Origin: Chiloscyllium plagiosum | Taxonomy: Eukaryota | Assembly: GCF_004010195.1 (NCBI RefSeq) | Contig: NC_057755.1 | Location: 11,085,805 to 11,124,171, forward strand | Reading direction: 5' to 3' | DNA: 38,367 nucleotides | Part shown: positions 1,172 through 27,560 of the stretch, in pieces | Layout: the number at the start of each line of letters is the position of its first letter | Numbering within the stretch: position 1 is the first letter of the stretch | Notes under the pieces: model-generated | The model's database searches: none | What the model was told of the DNA's origin: nothing | What the model saw: the letters and a program-made list of their open reading frames with translations, nothing else | Made by a program: the position numbers and the translations under genes

Positions 1172-2170
1172 GTGTGGCGTCACCAAATATTTTATGATCT
1201 AAAGAAAAACATCTGTCAACAAATATCTATTAAATCGTATATATATTATAATAATGGAGAATTCCAAACTCGTTATTTACCATCGACGATGAAAAGCATT
1301 ACAAAAAGAAGCAGTTACCCAACGTATATTGTTGAAGACATCAGAAAGTCTGTGGGACGTATATTTTATTACAACTACCAGTATAATAGATATATTTTCT
1401 TAGGTACTTGTTTCGTATTTCATCATGGGCTATTACTTACCTGCTGTCACGTTGTTCATAATCAGTCACTGAATCAATTATATGTTACCTTTGAAAACTT
1501 TACAAATAATAGTTACATAAATTGTTTTAGATTTAAGAATATACTGTATTCTTCAAAGTCTTTAGACTATGCTTTGTTTGAAGTAGACTGGGATGGATCA
1601 CAAGTACCAAAAGACCTAACAAAATCAGATAACGCCATATCTAAACCTGGACAAGTCTGTATTGTCGGTTATTCTGATATTACAGACAAAGGTTATGAGA
1701 TATGCCCTGTAATCCCCCCGGAATGCAATCAAATTAATCCTCAGCCTTTATTAAGAGTTCCCTTTAATGTTTATAGCAAAATGAACTATCTTGAATTAAC
1801 ATCCCATGAAGGATTTACAAATTCTCAATCATTCTCTTATTCAGTATCATATGATGGTCAAAATATCAATATTCAGTTTACCTCTGCTTCAGAAATAAGA
1901 AATCCTAATTTAAACTATAACCATCAAATGGGAAATCTAACTACAATCTATTCAGGGGAAAGCAATAATCAAATCAATTATTTGGCATCAATGGCAGAGG
2001 GATCATCTGGTTCCCCCATATTTAATGAGCAGGGACAATTAATTGCAATGCACCATTCGGGAAACATCCTTAATGATGATGGAGAAATGCCCAAGTACTA
2101 TATTGCACGGGGAGTAAACATTTCTGCGATTATTAGTGATATAAAATCGCAACAAAACTTGCAAATGTAA
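1172..2170 (+). CDS. FAM111: FAM111-like trypsin-type serine protease, large terminal coding exon
   Basis: 332-codon ORF directly after a polypyrimidine/AG acceptor (cttctcatttcttatag|, AG 1170-1171). Motifs: SVGRIF, GTCFVF..LLLTCCHVV (His, cac 1448), LDYALF (Asp, gac 1565), IVGY...CPVIP, GSSGSPIFNEQGQLIAMH (Ser, tct 2006), and terminal I..DIK, as in FAM111A/B protease domains. A versus B orthology cannot be resolved. Confidence 0.85.
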   Translation: MWRHQIFYDLKKNICQQISIKSYIYYNNGEFQTRYLPSTMKSITKRSSYPTYIVEDIRKSVGRIFYYNYQYNRYIFLGTCFVFHHGLLLTCCHVVHNQSLNQLYVTFENFTNNSYINCFRFKNILYSSKSLDYALFEVDWDGSQVPKDLTKSDNAISKPGQVCIVGYSDITDKGYEICPVIPPECNQINPQPLLRVPFNVYSKMNYLELTSHEGFTNSQSFSYSVSYDGQNINIQFTSASEIRNPNLNYNHQMGNLTTIYSGESNNQINYLASMAEGSSGSPIFNEQGQLIAMHHSGNILNDDGEMPKYYIARGVNISAIISDIKSQQNLQM

Positions 2171-20059: not shown

Positions 20060-20769
20060 TTCATAAAAATATCTTGATATCTGTACATACAGTCACTAAA
20101 CAATTTGAGTCTGTACAGTAACATATGAATAAACAAACATTAGACTTTTGACTCAATCCAACAAATAAATTAAATGCATTTCTCACTTGTACAAGACTAT
20201 ATCTACATACATTTAAGGCACTGGGGAGGGGGTGATAACTGAACAGACCCCCATTTATCTTTAGCTGAATGGCCTCAGACAGTGGTCTTTCCCCACTGTG
20301 CCTTGGTGGTAGCTGCCCTAAGCTTTTAGTGCACCCCCTCAGCACGTCACCCTGCATCTTGGACTATGCCAGTCTACAACACTCGGCCAGGGTCAACTCC
20401 TAGCTCTGGAAGACCAAAGAGCATTTTTCAGTAGGTGGATGGTCCTCTGGGTGCAGTCGCTAGTTGTCTCGGTGTGTGTCCTGGGGAACAGACAGGGTCC
20501 CATGTCACAGAGCTGCTCACGACAAACCTCTCTCCAGACTTCCTTCGCAAAGACACATTCCAAAAAAAGGAAGAAGCGGGAGCAAATTCCTGCAGATGTT
20601 GGAATCTGTTCCGAAAACAACAAATGGAGATCACAGTGGGTCAAACAGCATCAATGGGGAGAGCAAGCGGACATCGAATCTAGATGACTCTTCTGACATT
20701 CAGAATGAGCTGTGAGACAGTCTCTACCTCAACTCAAGGTCAGCGGCTGGTGGTGCAGAAAGACTGGGC
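20060..20769 (-). mobile_element. Tx1-clade LINE, ORF2 C-terminus and 3' UTR (3' part of the element split by R2)
   Basis: ETV..L..LECVFAKEVWRE...FPRTHTET...KNALWS...CCRLA.SK...AQWGKTTV*, then an AT-rich UTR. A short Penelope-type insert lies at ~20575-20695. Confidence 0.75.
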
Positions 20770-23700
20770 AAATTTTGAACACTCGACATCTATTGTATAA
20801 ATTGTGTCTATTTTGTGTTTTTTCTCGTCACTTGTCGACGCGGAGTATACCACTTTACAGCTGCACCACAGCCAGATGTTACAAGGACATTCAGGGGTTA
20901 TAAAACCAACAGGTTAGCTACCTCATATCCACATTGTCTGTTGTGTTTAGTGAAAATTTTAATTTACACCCAACTGCCCACCACCTTACGGTGCTAAAAA
21001 TACTCTACTTTATTGCTAAAATTTTTAAAGTTTTAAATATTTTAAGCAATAAAAGTGTTTTAATAATCTTAAAACTATAACTAAATTTAAAACTATAACT
21101 ATATTCCTAAAATAAAGAGAGCCTACAAGAAGGCCATCATATGTCCACATAAATCTGGTGTATCCCCAACGTCAGAGATATCGTAAGGCTGGATATATTG
21201 CGGACAAATGGCTTAGTTAGTTATACCCAGCGACTTCATCAACATATTTTTATCACACCATTTCCTTCTAGCTCCTACGACAAAACCATAAAAGAATACA
21301 TTGGCCCCTTTCGAAAGGTCCAGTATCACCTTCTCCAAATGCTGATATTTCACCGACTTCTCCAACTAAGCTTGTTTAAGTGAGTCGTTTTCCTTTTCAA
21401 AACATACTGTGATGGCCCCCAGCACCGCCTGACCATCCTTAAACAGAATTAAAGTCGGGTATCCATAACTTCCGGTCAGCATCTTTTAAAATGGGCTTCA
21501 ACAAAAATTGTCCATCCATTCTTCTGAACAAGTTGGGTTCAAACATCAGCTATGTTATTGCGATTCTTTATCCTCATGTTTTTTTTTACTGAAATTATCA
21601 TCCAGAGAAGTGAGGAATCGTTTCAACTGCCAAATTAAATAATACAAACTGCAGGTGATGTAAAGGTCCTCCATAAGAGAAAGTAGTCCTTCATAGATTT
21701 GTCCTTAACAGAATTGTTTTAATAGCTCTGGATGTTCTCATACACAATAATCTTTTAGTCCAGGCAGGAGATATATTGTTGTTTTTAAAATAATGGATTC
21801 CCAACCCTTGGCAAGGCAGTGTCACAAAATTCTGTAATCCGGTTTCTCCATTTACCATAATTGTTGTTAATATCTTCCACTAGCTCTTAACTCTCCATAA
21901 CTTGGGTACTTGGAGCGCCAACGGACAGGCCAATTATTTGAGGATCCCAAGTTTCACAAATTCGTCAGCTGACTCAATTCTGCCAAATTTTTGACATTCT
22001 AGAATCATTAAAACGGAACGAGGCTTGTAAAATCTCAATCGGGAGCTCTTTGAAAAGCTTCATATTTCCACAATACTGCAATCGGTATTAGTATTGCTAA
22101 TTTATTTAATCCTAACCCACTATCTCTGTTCTGTGCATATAAAATGCCATCTGTTACAGATTGTGGAAAGTGTAAAACTTCCTTAATAAAACCCCTAATT
22201 ATCAAATCTAAATTTATTTAGATCATTTTGAGAAGCTTCCAATAATGTGAGATAATAGTACAACCTTGGAATAAAATTAGTTTTAAAAACCTTTTGTAGT
22301 GGTTTTAAAAGGCGATTTCTTTAGGTTTGCTATTCAATCTCTCAGCAATTCTTCCGAATTGGATGTACCTATTCCCACCCATGGAGCTATTTTCACCCAG
22401 AGATATTTTTCTGTATTACCTGGCTATATATACTGTATTTCATTATTAAGACTCCAGTTTTTCCTACTATTATAAATAAACATTTTATTCTTTAAACAAA
22501 AATGGATCCCTTTCGTTTTTCTCACGTTCGCCCTGTATTATCACCGAACGTTTGCACTAATTTAAGATTATAAGACATTTCTTCATAGGTTCAACTTTAG
22601 CCTACATGCATGACATTGCCTTATGTTGCACAATGATGCCTTTCAAGATCAGGATCTAAAAAGATCCCTTTGGTACTCTCTTCCAATGAACGAATGAGGG
22701 GGATCTAACGCTTATATTAAAAAGGAATGGGTGATAACGAATCACCCTGTTTCATGCCTTTTAAAGATCTCTATTTTATTAGCTTTGCATCTATATCCTT
22801 TTAAATTTGTAATTATTTTAACAAATTCTGTTGGGACAGAATCTATTTAGGGCTTTAATAATATCCTTATGACCAACTGAATCAAAAGCTTTAGCTAAAT
22901 CAATAAATACATTAGCTAATACTTATTTTTTCTTCTTCAATCCTTTAATAATATTACTCAAGATTTTAATATTTTGGTCATGACCCAAAACTCCTGCAAG
23001 GAATCATTTTTGTCGCTTATTTAATCCAATTATTCCACTTAGCCTTTTAGCCATTATTCTAGTAAAGATCCTGAGTAAAAAGGCCCAACTGTTATCGACC
23101 TCCAGTTATCTATTTCTTTCAATTCTTCTTTATCATTAGTTTTAGGTATTAGTGTTGTTCTATTAATTTTCATGCAATATTCCTGATTGTTCGTAGCCAA
23201 ATTGAGAACAGACAACCTTGGAAGTGTTTTATTGCCTGCGTTATACATGGCCATTATATCTTTCATCTCCATACCATCCAGCCCTGCTGTGGTTTTTGGG
23301 TCGATCACTTTAAGGGCCTGATCGACTTCATCCACAGTTATTGGCCGGACTGTGGGATAATTTGGTTGTTTACTTCCTCCTTAATATTTTGCAAGTTTTG
23401 TAATATTTGCTTCATCATTAGGCATTGATTATTTGTGACGGAAGAACTCGTCGAGTTCCTCTTCGTAAGGGGGCACATACTATCAACAGGAGCTCCCAAT
23501 ATTTCCCTTGCTAAGGACTGCCTTTTATATTTAAACAGCGTTTGCATTTGCCTAAATCTACTTTTCCTTTTTACAAGTCTCCTTCTTGCGTTATTCGTCG
23601 GAGTTATTTGCTTTCCATTTGATAAGCTAGTCATAATTTTGTCCGTTTTGTTATTTCCCTTTCCCACATTACACTTATTTTTAGCAATATTATCTTCTAT

Positions 23701-24851
23701 TTGGCCCAACAGGTCATTTAGAGTTTTTCCAATCGTGTCCCTTTCTCCATCTTTATTCTCAGTAAGCAGCTTTAATTTGTATCTCCTCTAGATTTATTAA
23801 TCTCTCTTACACTTCACTTTCTTGTTCCTTATTATCAGCATGCCCTCGTTCGATTTCTTTGTCATCTTCCTTGTCCTCTATTCCTTTTACTACTACTCTG
23901 CTTAGCTAAAAACAAAAATCTTTTATCAGAAAGTTGTTTACGCATTTTATTCTTCAACTGTTCCGCTATCATTTTATGCCACCAGAATATGGCTTCTCCA
24001 GGTTTTGTAACATCATTACCTCCACACTGGACCGAATTCCTTGTTTATTCTTATTTTGACTATTACTCTTCTTACTAACATTTTAGCTTCTTTTAGTAGT
24101 TCTTAGGGCAGCATGTTTATGTCTCAGGCTGCCCCAAATCTACAGCGGTCGAAAACGCAAGGGGACATCTTTCACACTAGAAGACCCCATTCAATTGCAT
24201 TGCTTTTTTGCCTGTCCATTTGGGATAATGACAAGCTACAGCATGGTAGCGGTTTTCCCCAAACACACTTATCACGCCCCGATTGAATATTTTCAAAAAA
24301 AAAAAGTCCAATTCTATTAAACACATTGTGACAAGAATCACATTTAAAATTATCTAAAGGCACACTTTATAATTAGGTCTAATTTATCTTCATTTTCAGC
24401 TGGATTTATAACCAATGGCTCTACTGGAATGTCAGACTCCTTGCTTTCAAGCTCTCTTGCAAAATTAAAAAAGCCCTTTAAAATTAGAGTTGTTATAAAA
24501 AAGTCTTAGTTATTAAAAGACCAGAGTCTTGGAGGAAGCTTCTCCTTTGACTGCATCAAATTTCCATTTTGATTCTCACTATTCAAAATGGCTTCCTCGT
24601 GCCTGATCGAAGAAACTCATATTGAGAGAATATCAAAAAAGGTCTCTTCCATCTGGGTTTGCACGGACAATTGAATTAATTTATGGCAAGAACGCTTTAC
24701 ACGCAATGCCATCGTAAGCATTCGTGCAGGGCAGTTGTTTCCCCGGTTGTCCACCTGTGGGATATAGGTAAAGCAGTGTTACTTCTGCAATCATAATTGC
24801 TTATGCAAGGTGAATGAACTAACCTACACCAGTGTATAATTGTTTCAGCAA

Positions 24852-25573
24852 AGAGCTGAGTTAGCTAATATTGATAGATTTGAAGGCCAATGAGGTAAAC
24901 GGGGAAGTACCGAAAATTGAAACTGTAAAAAAAAAAAAAAAAAAATTGTGGAGTAAGGGGTGGCTACTTGCTAGTCACCCCTTCTTGCAAGAACATTTCA
25001 ATAAAATTCGCTGCTTCAGAATTTGACTCGGACTGAAATTTGTGAGCTGTTTCTCTCACACCCAACTGGAAAAAGGGAGAATTAAACTTGAGCCATTCTA
25101 TCAGTAATCTTTTCTGAACTATCCTAAGACAAAAAGACCCGAAGGGTCAACAGCCATTTCATATTCCTTCTCTAGTCGTATTCGTCAAACTGGATTGAGT
25201 ATTAGGGTCAAGGCTGGAAAAGCACAGCAGGTCAGGCAGCATCAGAGGAGTAGGGGGGAGAAAAAAAACACCATTTCGGGCAAAAGCCCTTCATCAGGAA
25301 ACCCTGGATTGAGTAATACTCTAGCAACGGTCTGACATAAGTTAAAACCACTCAATGCCGATTAAAATTTGACTAACAGATATAAAAACAGCATTAAAAC
25401 AGTTTAAAAACTAGTCAGCCATTAAAACGAGCTTCCTCTACCAGGTCGTTACCAGGGGGAACCACATGAAGGTTTGACCAACTCTATAGGCGACAATACG
25501 TAAAAACAATGGAGAGGTGACTTCACAAGAATATTGTTGGGAGACCCAAACAAAACAGTAGTCACATCCCACC
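24852..25573 (-). ncRNA. Predicted HDV-like self-cleaving ribozyme of the R2 5' end with very long P4
   Basis: Minus strand: P1 5' GGUGGGA (25573-25567); P2 5' AGAGUUGG; P3/L3 aac-CUUCAU-gug (cf. cac-CUCCUC-gug); P1 3' UCCCCCU plus GG; P4 UAA..UGGUAGA / UCUAUCA..UUA; J4/2 GCUAAC (24865-24860); P2 3' UCAGCUCU (24859-24852). Confidence 0.65.
25202..25303 (-). mobile_element. Short Penelope-derived insertion with 12-bp TSD inside the R2 5' region
   Basis: ctggattgagta at 25190-25201 and 25304-25315. Insert carries CTGATGAagggcttttgcccGAAA. Confidence 0.8.
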
Positions 25574-25585
25574 CCCCCACCCCCC

Positions 25586-27195
25586 ATCCATTAAGGAACG
25601 CACATGTAATACACTTCTCAACACCAGCCAAACAGTGCTTTGGTACTAGTCTGAAAGTTCTGATGAGTCTGCTCAGGGAACAGCCTGACAAGATCCACCA
25701 TCTACTCTTCCCACAGGGTCTCGCAATGTGCCGTTCCCGCTACCCCTGTGGTCAAACGTGTTCCTCTTTGCAAATTTTTCCAGAGGACTGGTGACACAAA
25801 GGACTAATTGGAGTGTTCCAGGGTAATGAGGCCAGTCTCATCCTCCAGAATACCGGGGAAAGGTAGAACCTCAGTATGTATTGGCACATGGTGTTTGCAT
25901 ACAGGGTCTATGCACAGCTTGATGCTGCTGCACATAAAAGGTAGCTGTCAGGGTAAGGATGGTGTTGGGTACGCACTCCCCTCACCTTATCCAGAGTTTT
26001 GCACTTAGTGTCCCTGTGGACATGGTTCATCTTTGACCTCCAGATGAAGTGCAAGATGGTTATTACAACTGCCCATGTTCTGGCAATGGGCCAGACCGGT
26101 GCCACCTGCAACAAAGTGAATGCCTCACACCTGATGACCAGGTTTTAACTATGATGGAAGAGGGAGTGGTGCTCCCGAAAGCCCGGTCTCAGTTTCACTT
26201 GGGCGGTGTGAATCCCAAGTTTTTGCCCATGCTTGGGCCTCTCCACACCAGGTAACCTGTCCTGATGGCGAAGAGGATAAAAGAACAAGGCCTCACTCTT
26301 GCATTGGATTCCCTGGGCCCCTGAGGGCAGTTTGAACTGGTCACAGATGCTGAGTCTAGGCACAGACAGTGGGTCAGTAGAATTTGGTGATGTCGTCCAC
26401 GTACGGGGAGGATTTGACTTGCAGGCCTCTGCTGCCTGGAATAGTTTCCCCGCTCAGGCTCACATCCTTCCTGACAGACTCAGCAAACTCTCTGTACAAC
26501 ACACAAACAAGGCAGGAGAGAATGGGCAGCCCCGCCAGACTCTGGATCTGATCGGGAAGCTTTATGATTCCCAAGCATTGATCGAGACCGCATGAACGAT
26601 GTCGGCGCAGAGCAGTCGGATTCAGTTGCGGATTCCCTCCCCACTTTGGACAGCACGTCCCATGTGTAGGTGTACAATATCCTGTCAAAGGTCTTCTCCT
26701 GGTCCAGGCTGCTGAGGCAGGAGGCCACTCCCCTGTCCTGCACGTAGACGATCGTATCCGAGAGCCTTGCACTCCTCAGATTGTTCTCCACGGTACAGCA
26801 CAGGTTTGGTCGGGGTGAATCACTGATCCCAGAGAAGACCTGACCTGGTTGGCGATGACCTGAGACAGGATTTTGTAGTCTGCATTCAACAGTCAGACTG
26901 TTAGAACTTGGCAACCAATTGGAGAAGTGCAAAGCTCTCAGGAATACGACCACCTACGTACAGGGCAGGGGTGTGGACCGAGCAGAGGACAACTCGGCCG
27001 GTAAGCTGCCACTTCTGGGAGTTTAAATTCTTTTCGAATGACTCGAGGACCTTGGTCAGCTCATGCAGAGATAATGGCTGGTCCAGCATCTCCTACCTTC
27101 TGCTGTCAAATTCCTGCATGACAGAAGACAGGATTGCGCTATCTGTGGGCTTCTTGTTGTGCAGTCTGACATAAAAGGATTTGCTGATCCTCTGC
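25586..27195 (-). mobile_element. Tx1-clade LINE ORF2 RT region (5' part of the element split by R2)
   Basis: LDQPLSLHELTKVLESFEK, SLDQEKTFDRI.YTY.WDVLSK, VKSSPYVDDIT, WLVLRSVLHVRSLM up to the R2 junction. Confidence 0.85.
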
Positions 27196-27229: not shown

Positions 27230-27560
27230 AATGACATTATACTTCTGATGGGTAGCATGTGCAAATCCACGAGAAAGGGTGCCATCACCCTCACCTACAA
27301 GCAGAAAGGAGAGAGAGAGGGAGGAAATTAGAAATTGGCAACCAATCTTACTGCTCGCGTTACTATGTACTGCATTTTGACCTTTCCTCGGTGTTGCGAA
27401 GGATGGGACCGGCCAAGTAGTTGGACTGTTTCATATCACCTCCCCTTCGTGGAGAAATTTCCAAAAGGAAAACCAAAAACCTTTGACCACAAGTCAAGCA
27501 GGAACTGGTCAGCACACAGCATGCTCGAGATGCTGCAGGAAAAGGAGAGGGTAGATCCTA
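27230..27560 (+). mobile_element. Inverted Tx1 ORF2 fragments
   Basis: ITLTYKQKGE.EEIRNWQPI and SSWTVSYHLPFVEKF..KTFDHKS.RNWSAHSMLEMLQEKERVDP on the + strand. Confidence 0.7.

Follow-up and report, generated by a model that had tools for sequence, protein, structure and literature searches.

A dead lineage-A R2 element in a recurrently filled LINE site of the shark Chiloscyllium plagiosum, probably inserted at a near match of its 28S target

How does an R2 element, a retrotransposon whose specificity for the 28S ribosomal RNA (rRNA) gene has brought its proteins under development for gene insertion, come to interrupt another retrotransposon? The question is raised by a 38,367-nt stretch of the Chiloscyllium plagiosum genome (assembly GCF_004010195.1, contig NC_057755.1, positions 11,085,805 to 11,124,171 of the forward strand; hereafter the window), in which a decayed R2 of lineage A spans 20773..25574 on the minus strand, two later inserts included, between the two halves of a long interspersed nuclear element (LINE). 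We consider it very probable that this copy is a dead, full-length member of a 28S-resident R2 lineage, whose own target-primed reverse transcription likely placed it at a near match of the 28S target in a LINE of the L1 group, at a site that also received four other R2 copies. Our best reading of the wider data is that a 28S-resident R2 lineage leaks to near-cognate sites and that the copies are retained there. The sequence-only reading of the window had offered either an off-target insertion or a family of relaxed specificity; the outcome lies in between, with the lineage found at the canonical 28S site and at many near-cognate sites, the LINE site being filled five times.

The R2 copy and its LINE target

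The ends of the copy, the 3' end exactly at 20773 and the 5' end at about 25574, are the same in sister copies, and its extent is further supported by alignment to P0001, an intact 1289-residue bamboo-shark R2 protein that ranked first in a search and served as the alignment reference. The 5' half of the host LINE, identified by its domains and by comparison with other host copies, stops at target position -1 (25589..26900, minus strand), and the 3' half continues from position +1 (20204..20772, minus strand), interrupted by an unrelated stretch at about 20570-20690. The domains of open reading frame (ORF) 2, namely APE, reverse transcriptase (RT) and zf-RVT, place the host in the L1 group; the name Tx1, given to it from the sequence, is an assumption based on motif resemblance, and none of the 120 matches listed carries that name. 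An Rfam scan of the window at gathering thresholds returned neither rRNA nor ribozyme, and the window thus holds no rDNA, as the sequence-only reading had claimed for the flanks. That reading was also right that the flanks are halves of one LINE that rejoin in register: none of the host target bases is lost and none is duplicated.

With the insertion point marked by a slash, the rejoined flanks read TCCTTAATG/TTTGCCCAG, compared with TCCTTCATG/YATGCCCRG in empty host copies; at the junction itself, the window gives TCCTTAATG/TTTGCC and empty sites typically GTGAGATCCTTCATG/YATGCC. The insertion point TTAATG/T differs from the 28S sequence TTAAGG/T by one mismatch over positions -6 to +1, and it fits the TTNANN/T cleavage motif of silkmoth R2 as described in an excerpt of PMC10499050. 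Among 29 other host LINE copies that we fetched, the site was readable in 18. Over 17 empty sites, agreement with the 28S target averages 16.4 of 35 positions; of the roughly 6,400 35-mers in each locus, between 0 and 103 (median 7) outscore the LINE site. The combination A-22/T-20/A-19 is present at all five filled sites versus 6 of 18 empty ones (p 0.014), a contrast that was picked after looking and is a lead only.

When the RT of a better-kept sister copy (L044) was compared with solved R2 structures, three from vertebrates scored 367, 366 and 336 bits, those at 367 and 336 bits being presumably from bird and turtle, judging by entry names, versus 165 bits against a silkmoth R2 entry and 97 bits against LINE-1. 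In a maximum-likelihood RT tree, the window copy groups with other copies of the genome, P0001 and a catshark protein with an SH-aLRT (approximate likelihood-ratio test) support of 100, and this shark clade is nested in the three-finger R2s of bird, turtle and fish with a support of 94. The tree is a quick one, built from 77 of 132 rows, in which the outgroup sits on a long branch and NeSL, Utopia, R4 and Hero are not represented by a named member. Those four families have other targets, and Utopia lacks Myb; the grouping with vertebrate three-finger R2s, the RT scores and the 28S target of the lineage speak indirectly against membership in them, three of which (NeSL, R4 and Hero) the sequence-only reading had set against R2. 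The single ORF, with RT and a C-terminal restriction-like endonuclease, is collinear with P0001 and broken in the window copy; the three zinc fingers (ZnF1 to ZnF3) and the Myb domain are complete in P0001 and in L130, a young copy described below. The canonical 28S site is occupied by the lineage in six copies with 28S on both sides, the window copy itself lying elsewhere, and this target weighs most in the assignment: one member of the window copy's own subfamily (L035) lies at the canonical position in a 28S gene that is decayed but present in full (Rfam LSU, 1288 bits). The earlier assignment to R2-A is thus upheld, and the shark lineage lacks the marks of R2NS-type elements, which show no target preference and are missing from the 28S site.

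Insertions across the genome

Our census used R2 sequence only as query, which biases it toward copies resembling the queries, and its counts are lower bounds. The search with the RT region gave at least 42 matches (40 of 52 candidates scored). From 90 candidate 3' ends we dropped eight (two false anchors, one interrupted end and five without the terminal motif), set aside eight duplicate flanks and seven head-to-tail tandems, and moved one row to the 28S class by eye. Flanks were then classed for 67 distinct 3' ends, 41 of which are non-28S and 26 of which have a 28S 3' flank; the latter comprise six copies flanked by 28S on both sides, nine strays with a 28S tail and 11 that we left unclassed, so that at least 50 of the 67 lie outside rDNA. 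The nine strays (L040, L057, L166, L251, L252 and L255-L258) consist of a 5'-truncated R2 followed by a 28S tail of 51 to over 780 nt, with non-rDNA upstream, and are likely retrocopies of read-through RNA. They make up 9 of the 14 chromosomal copies with a 28S 3' flank, which rules out that all such copies are on target. A 21-nt pattern of the upstream 28S target has 16 exact matches in the genome, with two empty sites among the 12 read, indicating that the rDNA array is under-represented in the assembly.

The non-28S junctions carry a target signature. Immediately 3' of the insertion, TAG begins the flank in 27 of the 41, TAGC in 21 and TAGCC in 12, where 8.4%, 1.7% and 0.2% would be expected (p about 1e-19, 1e-26 and 1e-22, respectively). 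On the other side, 23 non-28S 5' flanks have a mean identity to upstream 28S of 0.44 versus a null of 0.38 +/- 0.01 (reached in 0 of 3000 draws), CTT occurs within the last 8 nt of ten (null 0.12), and 15 adjoin a run of five or more G.

One nucleotide of the host LINE is filled in 5 of the 41 non-28S copies, those in the window and at C5:119.99 Mb, C20:54.99 Mb, C27:9.40 Mb and C43:7.13 Mb; the window copy alone had been selected on account of its flank. A tree was built from 48 3' segments, each with at least 600 nt of usable sequence and the C5 copy left out; in it the other four fall in four separate places, are 55-84% identical to one another and are rejected as monophyletic (approximately unbiased test, p-AU 0.00014). 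The C5 copy shares 90-92% identity with a number of copies located elsewhere, and its identity to the C43 copy, 91%, falls in that range. The five host LINE copies are 72-83% identical upstream of the site, and all five 5' junctions differ. These are five independent R2 insertions, from four subfamilies, at a single LINE nucleotide.

The youngest of them, the C20 copy (L130:5159-8749), retains an uninterrupted frame of 1196 residues, although about 210 nt are deleted from within its endonuclease region, and is 87-89% identical to a 28S-embedded copy. Along the ladder-like tree, 28S-flanked and non-28S copies interleave and each age class includes 28S-flanked copies, which makes the leak old and persistent rather than the property of one branch.

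Other arrangements came to light in the census. The seven tandems (L104, L111, L112, L113, L115, L205 and L224) have one 3' end abutting the next 5' end, and in some of them a short stretch of the 5' region is duplicated. At five places (L169, L168, L201, L206 and L207) a single R2 insertion recurs with an identical flank, apparently amplified together with its surroundings. Two sites in CR1-type LINEs (L031, L054 and L164; L047 and L134) also appear to have been reused by R2 copies of different subfamilies.

Target choice and rival explanations

Under a leak from 28S, master copies would reside in rDNA and be co-transcribed with 28S, and a 5' ribozyme would cut the transcript at the element's own G-run. 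The R2 protein may recognise an incomplete match in the upstream region (-26 to -12) and cut one strand at a TTNANN/T, whereupon a few 28S bases left on the 3' end of the RNA could anneal to the primer strand and the 5' end be joined via microhomology or filler. Off-target copies would escape rDNA turnover and hence accumulate. We infer this manner of target choice, by upstream partial match, TTNANN/T nick and short-tail annealing, from the junction statistics and from R2 systems described in excerpts of PMC10499050, PMC12180492, PMC11204384 and PMC11371274.

Several observations sit poorly with such an account. TAG is missing at 14 and TAGC at 20 of the 41 non-28S junctions. The window 3' junction reads TTTGCC and not TAGCC, and TAGC occurs at none of the five LINE-site copies, so that annealing of the RNA to the primer there would be imperfect. 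At several filled sites with TAGCC, the empty paralogues have TGGCC or TTGCC instead; together with the 28S tails of the nine strays, this means that TAGC could be partly templated by RNA. The upstream similarity to 28S is modest on average, and the 23 5' flanks are not independent, since four are the same LINE site. The TTNANN/T motif itself derives from a lineage-D protein and is present at just 7 of the 17 empty LINE sites.

The present share of off-target copies is high, but it gives no rate, because the rDNA array is under-represented and loss rates differ, as an excerpt of the 2026 review PMC13580325 warns; its section 7 likewise regards the division into "site-specific or not" as probably too simple and present-day genome locations as potentially misleading. 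A raised off-target rate in the shark R2 relative to other R2s is a tentative proposal that we hold to be less likely than not. That the element has gained a second heritable home, where it would sit sense-oriented at one site of an abundant LINE, be released by LINE read-through and replicate without rDNA, seems to us unlikely. If true, a vertebrate R2 would here be in transition from its 28S specificity to another target, with a putative ribozyme needing no 28S sequence.

Could the window copy have arrived without R2's own machinery? R2 RNA or R2-28S read-through RNA might have been mobilised in trans by another LINE, of which the genome has an abundance, or R2-containing rDNA might have been scattered as DNA. 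Either route could make the nine truncated R2 copies with 28S tails among the 14 chromosomal 28S-flanked ones, and for these strays such an origin is plausible. The window copy, however, has neither a 28S tail nor a target duplication, shares the precise 3' end of its family and lies at a TTNANN/T match, and five insertions of four subfamilies on one nucleotide need sequence-specific targeting; for this copy we judge mobilisation in trans or scatter quite improbable. Slightly less credit is due to a separate, non-site-specific family of the R2NS kind that left rDNA. The predominance of 3' ends outside rDNA and the unusual CCHC third finger (see below) would suit it, but it is largely refuted by the 28S-flanked copies in every age class, by L035 within a whole 28S gene, by the 87-89% identity of the youngest LINE-site copy to a 28S-embedded one and by off-target sites that are far from random, in an assembly where the rDNA array is under-represented.

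The hotspot could in principle be one event, a single R2-in-LINE composite that was later duplicated. Flank duplicates do occur, eight rows having been set aside as such, and the C5 and C43 copies are 91% identical. The divergence of the R2 copies and their rejected monophyly nevertheless refute this for the four copies in the tree, and the hosts differ from one another as do the five 5' junctions; for the C5 copy, which stands outside the tree, copies at other sites are as near as C43 is. We therefore give duplication very little weight. A chimeric misassembly of an rDNA-borne R2 into the locus, which the sequence-only reading had raised, would be conceivable in an assembly that is gappy and represents rDNA poorly. 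Contigs from three public samples of two studies bridge the 3' junction (X1 and X10) and the 5' junction (X1, X3 and X10), and the copy has private inserts and differs by 24-26% even from the relatives closest to it. Among the public records examined, no single one spans the whole R2 stretch, and the raw reads of X13 are too thin to lend support at the junctions. Because both junctions are bridged in independent public data, we take the locus to be correctly assembled and the chance of an artefact to be close to nil.

Element features and related systems

All modules listed in the sequence-only reading, three fingers, Myb, RT, endonuclease and 3' untranslated region (UTR), are found in that order on the minus strand and are decayed. 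The element had also been called complete, which is true of its extent and not of its coding capacity: the frameshift-aware alignment to P0001 (24754-21143) covers 1171 residues at 43% identity with 16 stops and 26 frameshifts, and the catalytic FADD of the RT is lost (about 22620). By its sequence the copy is dead, in keeping with its earlier description as a fossil, and a Pfam search of the decayed ORFs in the window gave no match. Aligned to P0001, the zinc finger remnants occupy 24113..24342, with CxxC alone kept in ZnF3 (24342-24328), the H..C half in ZnF2 (24245-24216) and both CxxC and H..H in ZnF1 (24176-24113). A Myb-like remnant lies at approximately 23916..24040, a label that we assign by position and motif; Pfam called no Myb in intact P0001. 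The RT region, with approximate limits, spans 22200..23600, the eroded zinc knuckle and endonuclease 21143..21700 up to the ORF end, with PD still present at 21465-21454, and the 3' UTR, as delimited by alignment and sister copies, 20773..21142.

The overall span of about 4.8 kb, as first described, includes some 0.4 kb of later insertions, leaving about 4.4 kb of R2, since two inserts are missing from the four sister copies aligned. One, of about 100 nt (25202..25303), is an end fragment of a very abundant repeat, with a direct repeat of 12 nt on its two sides (25315-25304 and 25201-25190). The other is a 303-nt repeat (24756..25058) that shows raised depth and loose ends in public sample data; it is moderately repeated, with an internal A-run and possibly a 4-nt direct repeat at its flanks, and no second copy was present among the fetched loci. 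For the R2 itself, no target-site duplication or terminal repeat stood out. Its 5' junction bears a G-rich filler of 14 nt (25575..25588, minus strand) whose length and letters differ among public samples.

At the 5' end we predict a ribozyme of the hepatitis delta virus (HDV) type lying wholly within the element (25174..25574, minus strand), with helices labelled by eye after the HDV topology. The 5' strand of P1 would be the G-run at the element's 5' end, followed by a P2/P3/L3/P1 3' core at 25479-25452, a long P4 region, and J4/2 with the 3' strand of P2 at 25185-25174. This layout, a G-run pairable with a downstream C-run, a core like that of R2 ribozymes and a GCUAA-type junction, recurs in 34 of 35 copies, 32 of these 34 keeping the J4/2 cytosine. 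The pairs are nearly invariant and hence without covariation support, and the Rfam scan of the window left the putative ribozyme unmatched at gathering thresholds. A nearby CGACC, which as partner of P2 would imply loss of the catalytic C, was dropped in favour of a canonical GCUAA plus CGACC located 134-266 nt further on. By analogy with PMC3774820 (excerpt), cleavage at the element's own 5' end may explain the G-run starts and the variable 5' deletions and fillers.

The third finger reads C-x2-C-x12-H-x3-C (CCHC) in P0001 and in most sister copies read; the standard CCHH pattern is found in 64 of 120 matches and CCHC in three, one of them readable either way. It is a candidate cause of the leak, and fingers 3 and 2 are reported as not critical for site selection in an excerpt of PMC11204384. 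A second R2 family (L239, L240, L241, L243, L244, L246, L247 and L249), which accounts for 8 of the 12 target-pattern matches read, starts with about 24-28 nt of upstream 28S and also lies outside rDNA, as judged from its 5' junctions, the only ones read. In three of them (L239-L241) the R2 adjoins one and the same position of a LINE, which we take to be of CR1 type. Both the element-contained ribozyme and the CCHC finger are weakened as causes by this family, the start of which is near 28S -28, and retention or host factors are favoured over a family-specific defect.

The bamboo-shark elements R2-1_CPu and R2-1_CPl have been published as 28S-embedded (Hassan et al. 2026, PMC13188248, Table S2). 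They are of the same lineage as the window copy by 5' end, putative ribozyme core and protein family, and the N-terminal text of P0001 is identical to that of R2-1_CPu; the window copy differs in belonging to an older subfamily, at 43% protein identity. Both are single 28S entries, and the excerpted text of that source does not mention copies outside rDNA, repeated use of a site in a LINE or a third finger of the CCHC type. The window copy is a dead member of this published family, and sequence-guided insertion outside 28S was itself already known. For silkmoth R2, a rare insertion outside 28S is described at a sequence matching RASIN (Xiong 1988, cited after PMC10499050), and bird R2 in PRINT goes off target at 0.1-1% in cultured cells, at sites sharing little but primer-complementary bases after the nick (PMC11371274, excerpt). 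Like these, the shark sites keep TTNANN/T or primer-complementary bases, but the silkmoth is a single natural case and PRINT a matter of cultured cells, whereas the shark offers at least 41 distinct natural sites, one of them reused.

Vertebrate lineage-A R2s (zebra finch 9nl3/9dou, turtle 9nl2 and zebrafish) share with the shark the three fingers, Myb, RT, endonuclease, clade and canonical 28S site, zebra finch and turtle being the nearest solved relatives; they differ in having CCHH in ZnF3, and typical R2s use about 28 nt of upstream 28S where P1 of the putative shark ribozyme lies inside the element (PMC13580325, excerpt). Spread outside rDNA is also known for R2NS-1_SMed and R2NS-1_CSi (PMC5035012), cockroach R2-like elements (PMC7650587) and sponge R2 homologues (PMC13188248), but these are invertebrate and, in the excerpts of those sources, described as not target-specific, whereas the shark lineage still occupies its canonical site and shows a target signature at its other sites too. 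Our search of the literature, mostly of openly readable papers, turned up no account of R2 copies dispersed over near-cognate sites in sharks, nor of any other LINE serving as a secondary site. For a vertebrate R2 of lineage A, the genome preserves natural off-target insertions that can be dated, with dozens of sites, successive subfamilies and one secondary site filled five times, and so offers substrates to test which target bases matter. Target switches have occurred elsewhere in the evolution of R2, and a near-cognate leak of this kind may be how they begin.

A few minor observations complete the description. A turtle protein annotated as a phosphodiesterase 3B isoform (P0003), on a 156-Mb contig, contains three R2 fingers and an R2 RT, and is either an annotation chimera or an R2 outside rDNA in turtle. 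Within the window, a short inverted fragment of the host LINE family lies upstream of the R2 (27359-27560, plus strand). At 1172-2170 (plus strand), an AT-rich open frame of 332 residues, presumably FAM111-like, encodes a trypsin-like peptidase domain (PF13365, E 5.7e-14).

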